From positions 9,555 to 66,940 of the forward strand of contig DAPT01000073.1 in assembly GCA_002502215.1 (NCBI GenBank): a stretch of DNA of 57,386 nucleotides, given 5' to 3'. The notes under the pieces were generated by a model, which saw only the letters and a program-made list of their open reading frames with translations, was not told where the DNA came from and ran no database searches. The translations under genes and the position numbers were made by a program. The stretch is from Euryarchaeota archaeon UBA124. Its GTDB lineage: Archaea; Thermoplasmatota; Poseidoniia; Poseidoniales; Poseidoniaceae. The stretch's first letter is position 1. Each line of letters starts with the position of its first letter. Shown here piece by piece: positions 10,267 through 50,048 of this stretch.

Positions 10267-10303
10267 GTTTAGGGTTGCCTAAAACGTTTAGGGTTGCCTA
10301 AAA
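10267..10303. promoter_or_regulatory. Two tandem copies of an 18-nt element GTTTAGGGTTGCCTAAAA, each containing the palindrome TTTAGG-N4-CCTAAA
   Basis: Exact copies lie at 10267-10284 and 10286-10303, separated by 1 nt (19-nt period). They sit about 100 nt upstream of the nuoA ATG (10400) and 12 nt upstream of the divergent small ORF start (10255). Confidence 0.45.
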
Positions 10304-10399
10304 AAGGTGCCCCAGTTCTTATGGTGTATTGGGAACGCTTATGGAGGGCATTCAAGTGGCATTAAACAGAGTGCGGAGACGTTCTTGAGGCGATGGCAA

Positions 10400-10867
10400 A
10401 TGGTCGACACAGGTTCAGTCCCGAGCGCTTATCTCTCAATCGGATTTTTGGCGATTGTTGGCATCCTCATGCCGCTTACAAATTTCATCATGTCATGGGC
10501 ACTCCGACCACGAACCGACCCAGCGCGCCCCCACATTACCAGGTCCTACCTCTTGGAAGGCTACGAGCGTGATCACAGCCTCTACCCACGTCGTCTTTCC
10601 ACATTCGAATGCGGAAGCGAACCAATTGGGGATGCGATGATTCAATTTCACTTCCAATATTACTGGTACGCCATCGTCTTCTTGGTCTTCGATGTTGCCT
10701 TTATGTTCCTCGTTCTTGCCGGCATGGTTACTGCTGATGAGACTTCAAAGACAACCGGAGACATCGCGAACGCCGAAGCAGGCTTAGCGATTATTGGAGT
10801 GTTCTTTGCCATCATGTCACTCGGCGTGTGGTATGTGTTCCGCAAGCGAGGCCGAATCTACATTTGA
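10400..10867 (+). CDS. nuoA: NADH-quinone oxidoreductase (complex I-like) subunit A
   Basis: ND3/NuoA signature FECGSEPIGDAMIQFHFQYYWYAIVFLVFDVAFMFLV and three hydrophobic helices. It is the first gene of the nuo cluster. I trimmed the start to ATG 10400 (MVDTGSVPSAYLSIGFLAIVG); the exact start is uncertain. Confidence 0.88.
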   Translation: MVDTGSVPSAYLSIGFLAIVGILMPLTNFIMSWALRPRTDPARPHITRSYLLEGYERDHSLYPRRLSTFECGSEPIGDAMIQFHFQYYWYAIVFLVFDVAFMFLVLAGMVTADETSKTTGDIANAEAGLAIIGVFFAIMSLGVWYVFRKRGRIYI

Positions 10868-26533: not shown

Positions 26534-29359
26534 ATGGCGAGAGGCGCATATGCTGTGTGTTGTGTTCTTCTTATGTTGGCATCCGTGCCGATTGCTTCTG
26601 CAAATTCATACGATAGTAACGGAGTGCAGGCCTCAAGTTCTACTCTAAGCATTCTACCGGCAAGCCCGACCGAGGGCGGTTCAATCACGGGTTCGTTGAC
26701 GCTTCAAAACACAAATTCCCAGCTTGCGGCCAACGTTGAATATTCATTTTACGCAAACGCTATTTCGCCAAGTACACGTCTATTGACTTCAACTGTGAAC
26801 ATCCTTGCCAATGATTTTACGACTGTATCTGCGACATGGGACGGTTTGGCAGAGGGTGAAAACAAGTTATGGGTTAGCTATTCATACAACAACGGGCCAA
26901 CGCAAGAGTTCTACCATTCCTTCACAGTACAAGGCTTGCCGAGCCTTTACATCGTTGAATCAACCATGACTCCATCATCCGGTATCCATTCTGGCGATAC
27001 TGTGGGACTTAACACCAAGATTGCCAACATCGGCAGCGTCGATGCTCCTGCCTCGCATCTTGAAATTCGATTCCCAGGTTCAATGAGCGATGTTGAACTT
27101 GCAACCGAATCCATTGCTGCAGGGGCTGAAACATGGGTGAACACAACCTTCGTAGCACCATCAACAGGAACCTATCAGATTGAGCTCACGCCAGATGTCC
27201 GAGACGAAATCCAAGAATCTTCAGAACAAGGCAAATCCGTGTCTGTCGACCTTACTGTAGAGCCTCGAATGGATCTGTCGCACAATGGTGAATTGACCAT
27301 CACGGAAACACCTGGGTCATTGATTGGTCCTTGGACTGTTTCTGGCACCATGGCGCGTGAGGCCGGTGAAGGAACGACAACAGTCCCAATGGTTTTGCAA
27401 TTCCGAGAGGGTGCCTCAGTCATTCGTTCCTTGCAATCGTTCGACGTACAAATTTCCGGAACAGGGTACAGCACTCAATCATGGTCCACAACCATTGTGA
27501 GTACCGATATTGCCGGAATGCCGACAGGGCAGTATACTTTAGCGGCTGTTATCGATCCGTTCACATCGGGTTCTTTTACACAAGAGAACACAGAAAATGA
27601 TGAGCTCATTGCAACGTTTAGTCTCCCTGAAATTCCCGATGTATTCGTTGATCCTTTGGCTCTTGCAAACCGTTCAACAGTAGCGGCCGGAGAGCTTGTT
27701 GACTGGTCGATGACGGTAACAAATACAGGTGAAGTATCCGTTTCAGGAACGTTCCTTTACACCTGGGAAGGTCAAACATTTGAATCTCCACTCATCCTCC
27801 TCAATTCTGGTCAGACCTACACCTATACAACGTCTCATGGAACTGCACTGGGCCAACACACAGCAAACATCAATGTGCAGTGGAAAGCCTCGACAAATTC
27901 CTATGACCGAGTTCCGACCAACAGCGTCGCTACCGGAGACGTATTGGTTGAAGCGAATCTTCAATTGGATTGGGATGCGGACTCAATGATGTTGCTCGAT
28001 GAAGGAGGGGAAACAGCAACCTTCCCTCTCGAATCGGGTGAAGTGTACACCATGACCTTGGATGTTCGATCTACTCGTGGTACTGGGGACATCACCTTCA
28101 CATGCAAAAACAGCCAAACAACGTGGTCCTCAACGGATGTAAGCATTGAAAACCCAGGTGATCGAGAAGAAGTTTCGTGCACCTTTACCGCATCTGGTAA
28201 GATGTCGATTGTTCAGTTGATCCCATCCGATGCGATGATAGTGAGTACATTTGAGCGCTCTTTCTCTACTGCGATGGTTGATGGAAACACAGCCAATGGC
28301 GGGGACAGCGATGGAACCGGCACTGCGATTCTCATGCTCTTCGGTGCTCTGGCTCTCATCGGTGTTTTGGTTGGTGCTATTCTCCTGACTCGTGAGCGAG
28401 AAGAAGAAGTCGAGCGTGATATTTTCAACTATTGTCCTGCTTGCGATGGTGAACTTGAGGGTCATGAAGATCGCTGCCCGCATTGTTCGTTCAATCTACG
28501 AAAAGCTCGTTCGCAATTCCACGATTGTCATGCATGCGGTGAATCGATTCCCGACCTGATGGAAAACTGTCCATATTGTGGTACTGAGCAAGATGTTTCC
28601 TCTTTCTTTGAACGCAGAGAGCGTCGTGTTCGTGATGTTCCAAAAGAGAAAGAAGTCGTCGCATTACCTGACGAGGATGAAGATGAGATCGTTAGCGGTT
28701 CAGAGGACTTTGCTGATGCAGTCAAAGAATTCGGTTATGATGAATCAAACCTTGAAGATGAATGGGATGAAAACGTTGTTGCTGCGGAGGAAGAAGTTAC
28801 CGCAGCGTACGATATGCGAAACGCAGATGAAATCGCAATGGAAGACATGACCGAAGAGGAAATTGAAGAAATGCAAAACCAAGTTGTACCGACTCTGAAG
28901 ACGGTTCAAGAATCCTTTGAAGGCCATGATCTGGATGCCTTCTTGCCAACAAAGGACAAGATGAAATCGCTCAAGGACGATGGAGAGGACAAAGACGGGG
29001 CTGCTTGGACGACACTGTCTGCGAGCGATGCCGACATACGTGGCGACCTGTTTGAGTTAACAGGTGAGGAAGGCGTTATGCCTGGAGAGAAGGTTGTTGT
29101 TGGAATGGGTCTTACGGACAGTTCACTCGCTGGAAATGAGATTACTGAAGCGAGTGCGGACTTTGCTTTCGATGATGATTCTGAATTACCACTTACTGTC
29201 GAAGACGGTGATAAGACAGCAACTGCAAAACCGCGTCGCCGACCTCGCCGAAAGCGAACATCGAAGCCTGAAATCGAAACGGCAGATTGCGGTTCATGTG
29301 GCGCGGTCGTTCCTGCTGATGCCAAGGAATGCCCAACGTGTGGTGCAAAATTCGAGTGA
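26534..29359 (+). CDS. Large surface protein: extracellular CARDB-like repeats, one TM, ~320-aa acidic cytoplasmic tail with three zinc ribbons
   Basis: Signal peptide MARGAYAVCCVLLMLASVPIASA. Repeat signatures IANIGSVDAPA, VTNTGEVSVSG, ENTENDE. TM helix GTAILMLFGALALIGVLVGAILL. The tail contains CPACDGELEGHEDRCPHC, CHACGESIPDLMENCPYCG and the terminal CGSCGAVVPADAKECPTCGAKFE. Confidence 0.8.
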   Translation: MARGAYAVCCVLLMLASVPIASANSYDSNGVQASSSTLSILPASPTEGGSITGSLTLQNTNSQLAANVEYSFYANAISPSTRLLTSTVNILANDFTTVSATWDGLAEGENKLWVSYSYNNGPTQEFYHSFTVQGLPSLYIVESTMTPSSGIHSGDTVGLNTKIANIGSVDAPASHLEIRFPGSMSDVELATESIAAGAETWVNTTFVAPSTGTYQIELTPDVRDEIQESSEQGKSVSVDLTVEPRMDLSHNGELTITETPGSLIGPWTVSGTMAREAGEGTTTVPMVLQFREGASVIRSLQSFDVQISGTGYSTQSWSTTIVSTDIAGMPTGQYTLAAVIDPFTSGSFTQENTENDELIATFSLPEIPDVFVDPLALANRSTVAAGELVDWSMTVTNTGEVSVSGTFLYTWEGQTFESPLILLNSGQTYTYTTSHGTALGQHTANINVQWKASTNSYDRVPTNSVATGDVLVEANLQLDWDADSMMLLDEGGETATFPLESGEVYTMTLDVRSTRGTGDITFTCKNSQTTWSSTDVSIENPGDREEVSCTFTASGKMSIVQLIPSDAMIVSTFERSFSTAMVDGNTANGGDSDGTGTAILMLFGALALIGVLVGAILLTREREEEVERDIFNYCPACDGELEGHEDRCPHCSFNLRKARSQFHDCHACGESIPDLMENCPYCGTEQDVSSFFERRERRVRDVPKEKEVVALPDEDEDEIVSGSEDFADAVKEFGYDESNLEDEWDENVVAAEEEVTAAYDMRNADEIAMEDMTEEEIEEMQNQVVPTLKTVQESFEGHDLDAFLPTKDKMKSLKDDGEDKDGAAWTTLSASDADIRGDLFELTGEEGVMPGEKVVVGMGLTDSSLAGNEITEASADFAFDDDSELPLTVEDGDKTATAKPRRRPRRKRTSKPEIETADCGSCGAVVPADAKECPTCGAKFE

Positions 29360-29511: not shown

Positions 29512-30063
29512 ATGCAGCAGAGGATGTTAACGGTCTTTCTGGCTCTTACCATGCTGCTCATCTCAACATCAGGCTGCATTGGTTTGCTCCAAGGAAGGGA
29601 GTTCATGGAGCACCTTCGTGGGGATGTAAAGCAAGATACGGACATTCAAACCACTGCTATCGAGCATTATTTCTCGAATGCAGAAGTCAATGTCGAATGG
29701 AATGAAAAGTTCACCATAGATTCAGAAGTAACGAGAATCGGTGTCTACTTCAAAACGGAAATGGCCGGAGAAATTATTCGTGATCTGGCTCCTGCAATTT
29801 TCGATATACGTGAAGTCGAAGTGACGATTCGCGATCCGAATGGGAAAATTGAGTACAACGCCACACATGATTCAACAAAATCAGCGCCTTACGTTCTTAT
29901 CGAACCAGAACTTGGTGGTAAGTTCGTTTCAGGAGAATGGGACATCGAGGTTGTCGGTACAGGTGGTGGATTCCTCACGGAACAAGACAATTTCCTTCTC
30001 AGCGTTGACGTCACTCGGACGTGTACCATCTACCCACAGGACGACGTTTGTGTCGTCGATTAA
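29512..30063 (+). CDS. Hypothetical secreted lipoprotein-like protein
   Basis: N-terminus MQQRMLTVFLALTMLLISTSGCIG is a signal peptide with a lipobox-like SGC. The remainder is beta-rich with no motif I recognise. Confidence 0.55.
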   Translation: MQQRMLTVFLALTMLLISTSGCIGLLQGREFMEHLRGDVKQDTDIQTTAIEHYFSNAEVNVEWNEKFTIDSEVTRIGVYFKTEMAGEIIRDLAPAIFDIREVEVTIRDPNGKIEYNATHDSTKSAPYVLIEPELGGKFVSGEWDIEVVGTGGGFLTEQDNFLLSVDVTRTCTIYPQDDVCVVD

Positions 30064-31250
30064 ACAAGCGATTCATCGCAGGCGTACCTGCGACTGCAGT
30101 TGCGGCATTTTCCTTCACGATCGTGATTTCGTTTCGCACCGCCTTCGACCATCAATCGCTGAACTTCAATGATGTTCTCCTGGAGATGTCGTTTGGAATG
30201 CTCGTCCCAGAAGACTTGGTGAATATCTTGATCTCCGTAGCGTAAAATGCCGTAAGGAGGCGATTTCTTGGTGTTTGATTCAACGAGTGAAATGTATGCA
30301 AGCAGTTGTAAACGATGGGATTGGTGAGGTTTCTTGGGCACCTTACCCGTCTTCTGCTCAACGGGGATAAACTCACCCTCGATGATGACGATTTGATCGG
30401 GTCGCCCACGTAGTCCTGAAACATCATCAACCAACAGTTCACTGCTCTTTTCATCGTCTGAATAAACCAGTTCAGTACCGGCATCAAGACCTGCTTTCTC
30501 TCGACTTGAAACCATCTCATTCTCGGCTCTGAGTGAGCGTTGGAGTTGCCAAGTAGCAAAAAACGTCCAAATGAAGGCGATTACGATGAGGATAAAACCA
30601 GCTTGACTTCGGTTTTCAGCAGCAACCAGAGCGATAGCATGGATGCCGATAACAATGGTTGCGAGCAAAAGACCTGCCTCGGTTTTGCCTGCTGAAAACC
30701 ATCCTCCAAGGAAGCCAATTGGGCTCCATGTGGGTTCCAAACCTGTCGAGGAAAATCGATTCCGAATCTCTCGAATCTCTTTCATACTGCGTTCAATGCT
30801 GAACCACTGACGCCACGGCAAGGCAATGGAAAGAACTGCAGCAATAAGACAAGAAACCGACCACATCGACAAAATCCTTGCAAATTCAATTGGTGAGTTC
30901 ATGACGTCGTCGATGTAGACAAAGGCGATTGAATCGATCATGAAGGCGATGATTATTCCGTACCACCATGACCAGATGAGTAACGAACGACGCATACGAA
31001 TCAGTGCTGTCTGAAAATCACTCATTTCATTGTGGATCTGTTTGTGTTTTTCTACACCCTCTTCAACGGCTTCACCAATTCCAGATGCTCCCTCTTTCGC
31101 AAGTTGCCATGAAAGAGGGCAATACATGAATCGTTCCAAATCGCTTGCGCTTACTGGCAACGGCGTCCCAGACCCGTCGTTGAAATAACCCTCAGGGCCT
31201 CTTTTCGCTTTGGCAAAAGAGCCCCCCATAATTTCATCTTTCATCCACAC
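30060..31250 (-). CDS. Cas4/DUF83-family PD-(D/E)XK Fe-S nuclease interrupted by a four-helix transmembrane insertion
   Basis: Cas4 elements occur in canonical order: FMYCPLSW, EGVEKHKQIH, LRGRPDQIVIIEGEFIPVEQKTGK, HRLQLLAYISL and CRNCSRRYAC (C-x2-C-x5-C). Four hydrophobic segments of about 20 aa are inserted between the first two parts (about nt 30515-30990). Confidence 0.75.
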   Translation of the reverse strand: MWMKDEIMGGSFAKAKRGPEGYFNDGSGTPLPVSASDLERFMYCPLSWQLAKEGASGIGEAVEEGVEKHKQIHNEMSDFQTALIRMRRSLLIWSWWYGIIIAFMIDSIAFVYIDDVMNSPIEFARILSMWSVSCLIAAVLSIALPWRQWFSIERSMKEIREIRNRFSSTGLEPTWSPIGFLGGWFSAGKTEAGLLLATIVIGIHAIALVAAENRSQAGFILIVIAFIWTFFATWQLQRSLRAENEMVSSREKAGLDAGTELVYSDDEKSSELLVDDVSGLRGRPDQIVIIEGEFIPVEQKTGKVPKKPHQSHRLQLLAYISLVESNTKKSPPYGILRYGDQDIHQVFWDEHSKRHLQENIIEVQRLMVEGGAKRNHDREGKCRNCSRRYACDESLV

Positions 31251-48829: not shown

Positions 48830-49270
48830 ATGGATGCAAAGACAATATTAAACCCTAAAGGCTGGCTTATTGGCGTTGGAATCGTCAACATTTTGTTCAG
48901 CATAATAAATTTCCTGATGGCAGGCGATACCGCCACCACAGCACTTGAAGCGGAATACGGCGCACTATCTGACCGGGAATTGTCCATAGCGACGGGCTAT
49001 GAAGAAGGCTGGGGCCTCTTTGGCATTCCTTACGGCATCCTAGCCATCGCTTCTGGCCTTCTCCTCTCTGGCTCCGATCGAGCAAAGATGGCCCTGACCG
49101 CTGGTTTGGCATTCATCGTGACTTTCCTCGCGTTGGTGACCATTTCGAACGGCAACGGCTACGAAGTTCCTATTCCGCAGGCCGCACCGCTCTTCGTGCT
49201 GTTGTTGGCGCTCACAGCCTCGGGTTACCTCCACATGAACGATGACGAAGCACCTGCTACGGAGGCCTGA
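48830..49270 (+). CDS. Small 4-TM membrane protein, paralog 1 of a tandem family (146 aa)
   Basis: The N-terminal motif ILNPKGWL and the C-terminal YLHMNDDEAPATEA* are shared with the next ORFs. Confidence 0.65.
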   Translation: MDAKTILNPKGWLIGVGIVNILFSIINFLMAGDTATTALEAEYGALSDRELSIATGYEEGWGLFGIPYGILAIASGLLLSGSDRAKMALTAGLAFIVTFLALVTISNGNGYEVPIPQAAPLFVLLLALTASGYLHMNDDEAPATEA

Positions 49271-49272
49271 AG

Positions 49273-49665
49273 ATGGACCAACTCAAGAAAATCTGCAATG
49301 TGAAGATCTGGCTGATTATTCTCGCCATCATCCACACCGTGGTCGGCGTGCTTGCGCCACTTGACCCTCATTCTGACACACAGCTGGAGATAACCGGAGT
49401 ATTCTTGGCCATCTCTGTTTACCTTCTTTACACCGCCTTTGGTACCTCGGGCCAGGAGCAGGCCAGATGGGCTACCGTGTTGTGCGGGCCAATCTGGGTT
49501 TGGTTCGTAGTTTGTGGTGCTCTTGAACTGGAGGGCGTTGGCAACAACAGTTGGTCACTGTCCACTGAGTTGATTCCTCCCCTCGTTGTTTGGGGTATGA
49601 CGGCGCTCAGCGGTATCCTTCATTGGAACATGGACGAAGAAGCCGCACCTGCTGCTGAGGCTTGA
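49273..49665 (+). CDS. Small 4-TM membrane protein, paralog 2 (130 aa)
   Basis: MDQLKKICNVKIWL..., CGPIWVWFVV, LIPPLVVWGMTALSGILHWN and tail EEAAPAAEA*. The ATG lies 2 nt after the paralog 1 stop. Confidence 0.7.
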   Translation: MDQLKKICNVKIWLIILAIIHTVVGVLAPLDPHSDTQLEITGVFLAISVYLLYTAFGTSGQEQARWATVLCGPIWVWFVVCGALELEGVGNNSWSLSTELIPPLVVWGMTALSGILHWNMDEEAAPAAEA

Positions 49666-49667
49666 AC

Positions 49668-50048
49668 ATGGATCAATTGAAGAAAATCCTCAACCCCAAA
49701 ATTTGGCTTCTCGTTGTGGCTGGCGGACATACGTTAGCGACCATTCTACCCGTGCTGAGCGATCAAGGGCTCAACTTGGATGAAACAGAAGTCGAATACG
49801 CTGTTTGGCGTGTTGTATCAATGATCATTCCGATGGTGTTTATTGCGCTTACGTTCACGAAGGAGATTCAAGCAAAACTGGCAACGGCGATTGCTGGACC
49901 TGTTTGGGTCATGTTCGTGGTTTGGACCGTCATGGACGGATTTCAAACATTGTTCATTCCACCGTTGGTTCTGTGGGGTCTTCTCGCATTGAGTGGCGTG
50001 CTGCATGGTAACTGGCAGACGAATGAAGCCGCACCTGCGGAGGCTTGA
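49668..50048 (+). CDS. Small 4-TM membrane protein, paralog 3 (126 aa)
   Basis: MDQLKKILNPKIWL..., AGPVWVMFVV, FIPPLVLWGLLALSGVLHGN and tail NEAAPAEA*. The ATG lies 2 nt after the paralog 2 stop. The listed TTG 49662 is less likely. Confidence 0.7.
   Translation: MDQLKKILNPKIWLLVVAGGHTLATILPVLSDQGLNLDETEVEYAVWRVVSMIIPMVFIALTFTKEIQAKLATAIAGPVWVMFVVWTVMDGFQTLFIPPLVLWGLLALSGVLHGNWQTNEAAPAEA

Follow-up and report, generated by a model that had tools for sequence, protein, structure and literature searches.

Cas4 is among the best-known prokaryotic nucleases, yet what its numerous solo genes do has still to be established. In Cas4 proteins (PF01930/TIGR00372), such as SSO0001 (4IC1), the type I-C protein (8D3L) and Cas4-Cas1 (7MI5), the motifs follow one another in the same order: an N-terminal cysteine, a histidine, D...ExK, QxxxY and CxxCx5C. 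Here we describe the product of a gene on the minus strand of a 57,386-nucleotide stretch of DNA from Euryarchaeota archaeon UBA124 (Thermoplasmatota, Poseidoniales; GenBank assembly GCA_002502215.1, contig DAPT01000073.1, positions 9,555 to 66,940 of the forward strand); this whole stretch is referred to as the window. The protein shares these motifs and their order, and its predicted fold superposes on that of Cas4, but an insertion of about 150–180 residues, with four transmembrane (TM) segments, lies in the domain. It also differs from the Cas4 proteins of CRISPR (clustered regularly interspaced short palindromic repeats) systems in that its gene has no cas1, cas2 or CRISPR neighbourhood, is a core gene in conserved synteny, and encodes a protein whose native score is below the TIGR00372 cut-off.

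The same nuclease fold is found in AddB, AdnAB, Dna2 and Exo5, which are PD-(D/E)XK nucleases of the iron-staple type, and in MGME1 and ACE1; all of these are top matches in the structure searches described below. Four cysteines that bracket the core are typical of AddB, Dna2 and Exo5. The protein of the window differs in that it lacks a helicase domain or any other soluble accessory domain and is not encoded beside a prokaryotic Argonaute (pAgo). To our knowledge, none of AddB, AdnAB, Dna2, Exo5, MGME1 and ACE1 is membrane-integrated.

Solo-Cas4 proteins are encoded away from cas loci, like the protein described here; they are common in archaea and have no established role (PMC5704561, PMC12501428). 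The Solo-Cas4 from M. mazei binds a [4Fe–4S] cluster, is a Mn/Mg-dependent DNA nuclease and was purified as a soluble oligomer (PMC12501428), whereas the protein of the window is polytopic and has a constrained membrane module. The word "transmembrane" is absent from the survey of Cas4 phylogenomics by Hudaiberdiev et al. 2017 (PMC5704561). We found no description of a transmembrane Cas4 in the open full-text literature, including Cas4 phylogenomics and a PD-(D/E)XK survey, subscription-only papers being outside the search, and databases label the relatives just "Cas4" or "Dna2/Cas4 domain". The protein is an architectural variant of a known family, in which the Cas4 domain is threaded through the membrane in a whole subfamily.

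A precedent for a nuclease at the cytoplasmic face of the membrane is SNIPE, a membrane-anchored, cytoplasm-facing GIY-YIG nuclease. Through its tether it stays away from the chromosome and can cleave phage DNA as this enters, and deletion of the TM segment results in attack on the host nucleoid (PMC13190303). SNIPE and the protein of the window share this concept, and we infer a functional analogy only: SNIPE has an unrelated fold (GIY-YIG and DUF4041), a single N-terminal TM helix and is the product of a variable defence gene of bacteria, with no homology to the present protein.

A Cas4 domain interrupted by an insertion

An earlier note, made from the letters of this DNA alone, had described a 396-residue open reading frame (ORF) on the minus strand as a Cas4/DUF83-family nuclease with its motifs in the usual order. 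Every motif that it quoted is present, with the codon of the first cysteine at 31121–31119 as it had read: along the ORF come C44, then G65 and H69 (both within EGVEKHKQIH), D285, E298-x-K300, Q315-x3-Y319 and C382-x2-C385-x5-C391. The start codon is uncertain (GTG at 31250, ATG at 31244 or ATG at 31229); homologues are 389–408 residues long, compared with 396 for the ORF of the window.

The absence of a significant match to Cas4 or PD-(D/E)XK profiles had been named as a result that would speak against this assignment. Such matches exist: the Pfam families PF01930 (37.4 bits for a cut-off of 22.7, E = 3e-9) and PF12705 (E = 5e-11) are both detected, and PADLOC Cas4 models match the same stretch with E-values as low as 6e-19. 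All these matches are restricted to residues ~264–392, which corresponds to profile positions of about 57–177, or to positions 47–158 of 160 in the Pfam profile. The coverage of the C-terminal part alone is expected from an insertion within the domain. Only PD-(D/E)XK/Cas4 profiles matched the protein, with neither GIY-YIG nor DUF4041 among them. No helicase domain was detected in the protein by profile search or among the neighbouring genes, in keeping with the statement in the earlier note that the window holds no helicase partner.

The position of the insertion is best seen from an in silico excision. The intact protein aligns with TIGR00372 (cas4) over profile positions 56–178 only and scores 58.2 bits, the equivalog cut-off being 65. 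When residues 76–258 are removed, the alignment extends over positions 2–178 of 180 and the score rises to 68.4 bits; the alignments of the spliced protein with cas4g/cas1g also begin at position 2. This end-to-end match indicates that the N-terminal Cys/His segment is the true N-terminus of Cas4. Judging from these alignments, the Cas4 domain is complete apart from the insertion, which separates the His helix from the first strand of the core. This is where it had been placed before, between the N-terminal segment and the catalytic motifs, and the four hydrophobic helices do lie between H69 and D285. A sequence search of the PDB gave a marginal match to the Cas4 structure 4r5q (E = 0.18 for the intact and 0.09 for the spliced protein), which is too weak and was not used.

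Conservation was examined on an alignment of 49 sequences of 2-TM and 4-TM relatives, down to about 25% identity. Y43, C44, G282, P284, P296, K300, H312, Q315, G334, Y338, R374, H376, C382, C385 and C391 are invariant, and H69, D285, E298 and Y319 are each at least 90% conserved. All the Cas4 motifs are kept in 78 of the 79 Poseidoniales orthologues. The invariance or near-invariance of the catalytic and cysteine columns is as expected if the active site and the cluster ligands have been retained.

The membrane module and its topology

Kyte–Doolittle hydropathy locates hydrophobic segments at residues ~90–113, 124–146, 191–211 and 217–237, and the AlphaFold2 (AF2) model has long helices at matching places, so that the four stretches of about 20 residues pointed out in the earlier note are all recovered. 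The four segments are gap-free and hydrophobic in 79/79 Poseidoniales orthologues. Within this order, the TM segments (0.66–0.77) are conserved to roughly the same degree as the N-terminal Cas4 segment (0.69) and a little less than the core (0.77). W93, W95, W96, D106, P145-W146-R147, G182-G183-W184, E191, W228 and Q235-L236-Q237 are at least 97% conserved in the 79 orthologues. This sequence-specific constraint on the TM segments suggests that the membrane module is more than an anchor. The acidic residues D106, within TM1, and E191, where TM3 begins, as well as the cytoplasmic G182-G183-W184, are features specific to Poseidoniales; the loop between the hairpins is long in the 4-TM proteins of the Poseidoniales type.

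The number of TM segments was estimated by crude hydropathy on 71 full-length representatives at 50% identity. It is four in 32 of them, two in 16 and eight in 13, hence even in 61/71. The odd counts (1, 3 or 7, in 9/71) look like threshold misses or undercounts and were not retained as real topologies. Likewise, three segments are counted in 21/79 orthologues at a threshold of 1.5, which is an undercount, all four segments being hydrophobic in all 79.

The loops on the side of the nuclease contain 872 lysine and arginine residues, against 123 in the opposite loops, which are short (about 5–10 residues). This imbalance points to an N-in/C-in topology, in which both halves of the nuclease would be cytoplasmic; the argument combines hydropathy, the positive-inside rule and the AF2 model. 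The proposal that an even helix count returns the chain to the same side of the membrane is thus borne out by the four segments seen here, by the parity of the relatives and by the charge bias. Cas4-type proteins acquire their four-Cys cluster in the cytoplasm, which the N-in/C-in topology fits. We consider it highly probable that the protein is a Cas4-type nuclease with a polytopic N-in/C-in arrangement.

Predicted structure

The AF2 model of the protein of the window, calculated on the 49-sequence alignment, has a mean predicted local distance difference test (pLDDT) of 82.6 and a predicted TM-score (pTM) of 0.77. It consists of helices 60–116, 120–143, 189–210 and 214–253 and of a beta/alpha core; disorder is confined to the N-terminal tip and to the 152–186 loop, where the pLDDT is low. 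The His helix runs unbroken into TM1 (60–116), and TM4 continues out of the membrane as helix 214–253. A Foldseek search of the PDB with this model returned Dna2, the type I-C Cas4, Cas4-Cas1, MGME1 and Exo5 (target-normalised TM-score of 0.50 for 8d3l; root-mean-square deviation of 2.3 over 134 columns for 7mi5).

The model of the 2-TM relative from Methanofollis formosanus is of higher confidence (pLDDT 91.1, pTM 0.87). Compared with the solved structure of the type I-C Cas4 (8d3l_J), the whole chain is aligned, the hairpin is gapped out and the target-normalised TM-score is 0.67; Foldseek also matches this model with ACE1, SSO0001, AdnAB and AddB. These predictions suggest that the Cas4 fold is formed jointly by both halves. 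The earlier note had called for AlphaFold models that would tell whether the split halves rebuild a RecB-like core, and these confident models indicate that they do. The features of the gene and of its convergent neighbour are collected in Table 1.

Table 1. Coordinates in the window of the nuclease gene, of its predicted parts and of the convergent gene.
Feature	Position	Strand	Basis
Whole ORF, membrane-embedded solo-Cas4 family nuclease (putative), 396 aa + stop	30060..31250	-	ORF listing
Cas4 N-terminal segment, aa 31-88: S34-A35-S36..E39-R40..Y43-C44-P45..W48 and G65/H69 helix continuing into TM1	30987..31160	-	alignment, AF2 model, TIGR00372 on spliced protein
Cys44, putative first Fe–S ligand, 49/49 relatives	31119..31121	-	alignment
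His69, putative metal ligand in the Cas4 active site, conservation of 90% or more	31044..31046	-	alignment
TM helix 1 (predicted), aa 89-113; W93, W95, W96 and intramembrane D106 conserved in Poseidoniales	30912..30986	-	hydropathy, AF2, alignment
TM helix 2 (predicted), aa 124-146, ending in conserved P145-W146-R147; TM1 + TM2 = hairpin copy 1	30813..30881	-	hydropathy, AF2, hairpin HMM
Basic loop between hairpins (predicted cytoplasmic), aa 147-190; low pLDDT 152-186; invariant G182-G183-W184	30681..30812	-	AF2, charge count, alignment
TM helix 3 (predicted), aa 191-211; conserved E191 at start	30618..30680	-	hydropathy, AF2, alignment
TM helix 4 (predicted), aa 217-237, most conserved membrane segment: A217, F219, L221, A225, W228, T229, Q235-L236-Q237; TM3 + TM4 = hairpin copy 2	30540..30602	-	hydropathy, AF2, hairpin HMM
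Helical linker (predicted), aa 238-258, TM4 extended into the cytoplasm (helix 214-253)	30477..30539	-	AF2
PD-(D/E)XK / Cas4 catalytic core, aa 259-396: Y263-S264-D265 strand, G282-R-P284-D285, E298-Q-K300, H312, Q315...Y319, R374-N-H376	30063..30476	-	profiles, alignment, model, Foldseek
Catalytic motif D285 ... E298-x-K300	30351..30398	-	alignment
Q315-x3-Y319 motif	30294..30308	-	alignment
C382-x2-C385-x5-C391, putative Fe–S ligands 2-4, invariant	30078..30107	-	alignment
Lipoprotein-like gene, 183 aa (MQQRMLTVFLALTMLLISTSGC…), signal peptide and lipobox-like STSGC, convergent, end overlaps nuclease gene by 4 nt	29512..30063	+	ORF listing, synteny
aa, amino acids; nt, nucleotides; HMM, hidden Markov model.

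Relatives with one, two or four hairpins, and with split genes

The subfamily contains 8-TM proteins (in metagenome-assembled genomes of Thermoplasmata, UCH89508.1 and OYT46819.1), 4-TM proteins (in the cultured Aciduliprofundum boonei, ADD08116.1) and 2-TM proteins (in the cultured Methanofollis formosanus, WP_220682637.1, and in Poseidoniia archaea). Architectures with 2, 4 or 8 TM helices, and the two-gene forms described below, thus occur in other Thermoplasmatota, in Methanomicrobiales and in metagenomic lineages without assignment. When the upstream hairpins of the 4-TM and 8-TM proteins are scored with a hidden Markov model (HMM) built from the hairpins nearest to the core, the median is 27 bits. 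The highest score among composition-matched shuffles is 8.9 bits, and 56 of the 68 real hairpins score above every shuffle. The sequence similarity therefore suggests that the 2-, 4- and 8-TM forms have one, two and four copies of a single 2-TM unit, which is most simply explained by tandem duplication.

The subfamily also has a soluble member, the metagenomic protein P0251 (198 aa, …EGKEVHEQIGKTSTDKTIREKYGLKEGGIIYSDLD…), which lacks the TM insertion and marks the exact point where it occurs in the others. This uninterrupted form is probably the ancestral one.

About 25 of 150 representatives are proteins of about 170 residues which consist of one N-terminal TM helix and the nuclease core. At two loci (L091:742-1538 and L092:2559-3355), the stop codon of a 93-residue ORF overlaps the start of such a gene; the product of this shorter ORF consists of the Cas4 N-segment (…FVYC…H…) and then a single TM helix, and the downstream ORF of L091 has 171 residues. 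The two-gene form, in which an ORF of about 90 residues for the N-domain (YC...H) and one TM helix is directly upstream of an ORF for one TM helix and the core with CxxCx5C, is present at 44 of the 67 evaluable metagenomic loci (among L093-L172). The two ORFs are adjacent or overlapping and the break falls in the outer loop of the hairpin. This natural split within the hairpin, with one helix kept per half, argues that the two TM helices help to bring the N-segment and the core together.

The earlier note had considered that relatives encoding the halves as separate, unrelated genes would count against its interpretation, since the ORF could then be a fusion made by the assembly. Two-gene forms do exist, but their two ORFs are adjacent or overlapping, and the break inside the TM hairpin supports the model. 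An assembly fusion is ruled out by the recurrence of the single ORF in 80 independent species genomes.

At L091, a Translin-like gene is upstream of the split pair. At 23 other loci (L100, L103, L110-L112, L144, L145, L171 and others), the gene for one TM helix and the core has no upstream ORF for the N-segment, and an ORF of the YkuD-like L,D-transpeptidase type (…HGCIRL…) is often found upstream. These YkuD-like neighbours suggest bacterial hosts, and the metagenomic split class, mostly without taxonomic assignment, is probably partly bacterial. The proteins with one TM helix and the core have, in the QLxAYC helix, a cysteine that is almost invariant.

The natural series of soluble, 2-TM, 4-TM, 8-TM and two-gene forms makes testable the questions that this family raises: what the tether is for, whether a Fe–S cluster bridges two polypeptides, and whether archaea confine a nuclease in space as bacteria do with SNIPE.

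Distribution and genomic context

At least 568 relatives are present in species-representative genomes, and the names given to close homologues refer to Poseidoniales, Poseidoniaceae or Thalassarchaeaceae. Figures of identity and synteny refer to the best 80 of these relatives, with one locus per species genome. All 80 are from Poseidoniales, at 49–91% identity. The gene for ribosomal protein uS2 is the divergent neighbour in 78/80, the convergent lipoprotein gene is present in 79/80 and a gene for a CARDB protein in 75/80; the other neighbours kept in Poseidoniales encode Dus, two helix-turn-helix (HTH) regulators and a KH protein. Elsewhere in the window the genes are of the housekeeping kind (nuo operon, ABC transporter, RIO, eIF-1A, FadB). 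The gene is vertically inherited, core and syntenic in Poseidoniales (Marine Group II), which are among the most abundant groups of archaea in the surface ocean. The subfamily is widespread and ancient rather than a one-off. The term "orphan", by which the gene had been described, is appropriate in that it is solo and not linked to CRISPR, and inappropriate in that the protein belongs to a large family.

The window contains no CRISPR array (the sole repeat found by Tandem Repeats Finder, TRF, is 19 nt × 1.9) and no cas gene: PADLOC and Pfam searches of the 38 other ORFs gave only generic ATPase, subtilase and radical-SAM matches. An Rfam scan of the 57-kb window gave 0 matches. No cas gene or CRISPR array was found within 6–8 kb of five relatives either. 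These results agree with what had been noted from the letters; the protein is a solo Cas4, not a component of CRISPR adaptation, and the automatic "CRISPR-associated" annotation of the subfamily is hereby corrected.

In the other lineages, the contexts of these five relatives are also made of housekeeping genes, which differ between orders. The genes of 8-TM proteins adjoin that of ribosomal protein L15e in 3/3 cases (L081:7366-9632, L087:5386-7791, L090:6001-8126), and NTPase_1 and Trm1 are near the gene in two lineages. The adjacency to L15e or uS2 may reflect inherited synteny with translation genes, or coincidence. In Methanofollis formosanus (CP037968.1, L083:7576-9240), an upstream gene for RNase H overlaps the gene of the 2-TM protein by 4 nt and TrmO follows, so that RNase H, the nuclease and TrmO look like an operon. 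This RNase H is the only context that hints at a partner in nucleic-acid processing.

The convergent lipoprotein-like gene, which the earlier note had suggested examining as a neighbour, is conserved beside the nuclease gene in Poseidoniales, as said above. Its product has no Pfam or PADLOC match and evolves fast (26–35% identity where the nuclease has about 52%). We have not retained it as a functional partner: the adjacency is part of a syntenic block of more than 10 kb, the two genes are convergent, and the lipoprotein is absent beside the relatives in other orders.

Proposed function and alternatives

The best overall explanation, to which we assign a probability of about 0.6, is that the protein is a solo-Cas4 Fe–S nuclease fixed to the membrane and restricted to its inner side. 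It would be a polytopic protein whose Cas4-type domain (a PD-(D/E)XK core and four cysteines, of the iron-staple type) is interrupted by two tandem 2-TM hairpins. On the cytoplasmic side, the two halves would come together as a single Cas4 fold, which the two continuous helices (60–116 and 214–253) would hold against the membrane. By comparison with the family, the four cysteines may bind a [4Fe–4S] or a [2Fe–2S] cluster, and the properties of characterised Cas4 and solo-Cas4 proteins suggest that the enzyme cleaves DNA in a Mn/Mg-dependent manner. If the precedent of SNIPE applies, the confinement would keep the nuclease off the nucleoid and direct it to DNA at the membrane. The role that we favour, tentatively and by analogy, is of the defence type: an attack on linear or foreign DNA that enters the cell, in which location would be the cue that separates self from non-self.

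Several observations weigh against this explanation. The support is computational throughout, the topology being drawn from hydropathy, the positive-inside rule and the AF2 model. The score of the intact protein is under the equivalog cut-off of TIGR00372. At least one solo-Cas4 can do without its Fe–S ligands in catalysis (PMC12501428). As to defence, the gene is in a housekeeping, strongly syntenic block (uS2, Dus, L15e, Trm1, TrmO), without defence island or mobility, and no homologue was found in the viral contigs that were searched.

It may be that the same molecule has a housekeeping function instead, as a membrane-proximal nuclease that acts on DNA ends or flaps in repair, replication termination or segregation, or in the turnover of DNA at the membrane. 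We regard this as nearly as likely as defence, because of the core-gene status, of the housekeeping synteny and of the single RNase H operon. In 80 Poseidoniales species the gene is core, vertically inherited and surrounded by housekeeping genes whose arrangement is conserved, in other orders it adjoins genes for translation and RNA modification (L15e beside all three genes of 8-TM proteins, Trm1/NTPase_1, and the overlapping RNase H followed by TrmO in Methanofollis formosanus), and the best structural matches include the 5'-flap and end nucleases Dna2, Exo5 and MGME1. The M. mazei solo-Cas4 is induced in stationary phase and not by virus (PMC12501428). Against this reading, no conserved partner (helicase, Mre11/Rad50, HerA/NurA) adjoins the gene in any context examined, the link with RNase H is a single case, and it is unexplained why a repair nuclease would need a polytopic membrane module that is constrained in sequence.

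The other alternatives are much less probable, and each meets a different part of the data. That the protein is a non-catalytic membrane protein, a Fe–S or redox sensor or a scaffold that merely keeps the Cas4 fold, would agree with the constraint on the membrane module, including the buried D106 and E191, and Fe–S domains can indeed serve as sensors; we consider it improbable, since H69, D285, E298, K300, Q315 and Y319 are invariant or nearly so down to about 25% identity, as expected of a retained active site. An even number of TM segments equally permits both halves to be outside (N-out/C-out), where the nuclease would degrade or process extracellular DNA for uptake or nutrition, and the lipoprotein and CARDB surface-protein neighbours as well as the heterotrophy of Poseidoniales would suit such a role. 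This is quite improbable given the charge bias (872 against 123), the absence of a signal peptide on the nuclease, the cytoplasmic assembly of the Cas4-type cluster and the opposite loops of only about 5–10 residues. A canonical CRISPR-adaptation Cas4 that acts in trans with cas1-cas2 located elsewhere in the genome is what the database name "CRISPR-associated protein Cas4" implies, and the top profile and fold matches are CRISPR Cas4 proteins; it is very improbable in view of the lack of any cas gene or array in the 57 kb or within 6–8 kb of the five relatives, of the synteny with housekeeping genes across the whole order and of the native score under the TIGR00372 equivalog cut-off. Last, the two-gene versions of other lineages might evoke two genes fused by an error of assembly or of gene calling, or a soluble Cas4 with stretches that are hydrophobic by chance. 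We give practically no credit to such an artefact: the ORF is uninterrupted, with its four segments, in 79/79 orthologues from independent assemblies, relatives occur in the cultured A. boonei (ADD08116.1) and Methanofollis (WP_220682637.1), and the split forms break inside the hairpin, each half keeping one TM helix.

Returning to the membrane-fixed solo-Cas4 nuclease, a bolder extension can be proposed, which we consider rather unlikely. The subfamily might be an unrecognised class of membrane-integrated nucleases that would give Poseidoniales, and Thermoplasmatota at large, a constitutive and CRISPR-independent means of destroying DNA that crosses the membrane, based on location as in SNIPE. 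The duplicated TM hairpins, constrained in sequence, would then be an oligomeric platform, or else a sensor or a site for binding a partner where viral genomes enter or DNA is taken up.

Other features of the window

No tRNA was found in the window. A scan for promoters and terminators gave nothing above shuffles, with a method that is ill-suited to archaea.

The CARDB protein that adjoins the locus in 75/80 genomes (26534–29359, plus strand, 941 aa) has an unusual surface-to-cytoplasm architecture: a signal peptide, the CARDB domain, a TM segment midway along the chain, and an acidic cytoplasmic tail with several zinc ribbons (DZR, Zn_ribbon). Further along the same strand, at 48830–50048, three tandem paralogous ORFs encode small membrane proteins of 146, 130 and 128 aa. 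The second and the third start with M(N)MDQLKKI.N.KIWL, all three end with …APA(T/A)EA, and the last two overlap by 4 nt. The 19-nt tandem repeat is perfect and partly palindromic (GTTTAGGGTTGCCTAAAAC × 1.9); it is located at 10267–10303, just upstream of an ORF at 10307–10867.

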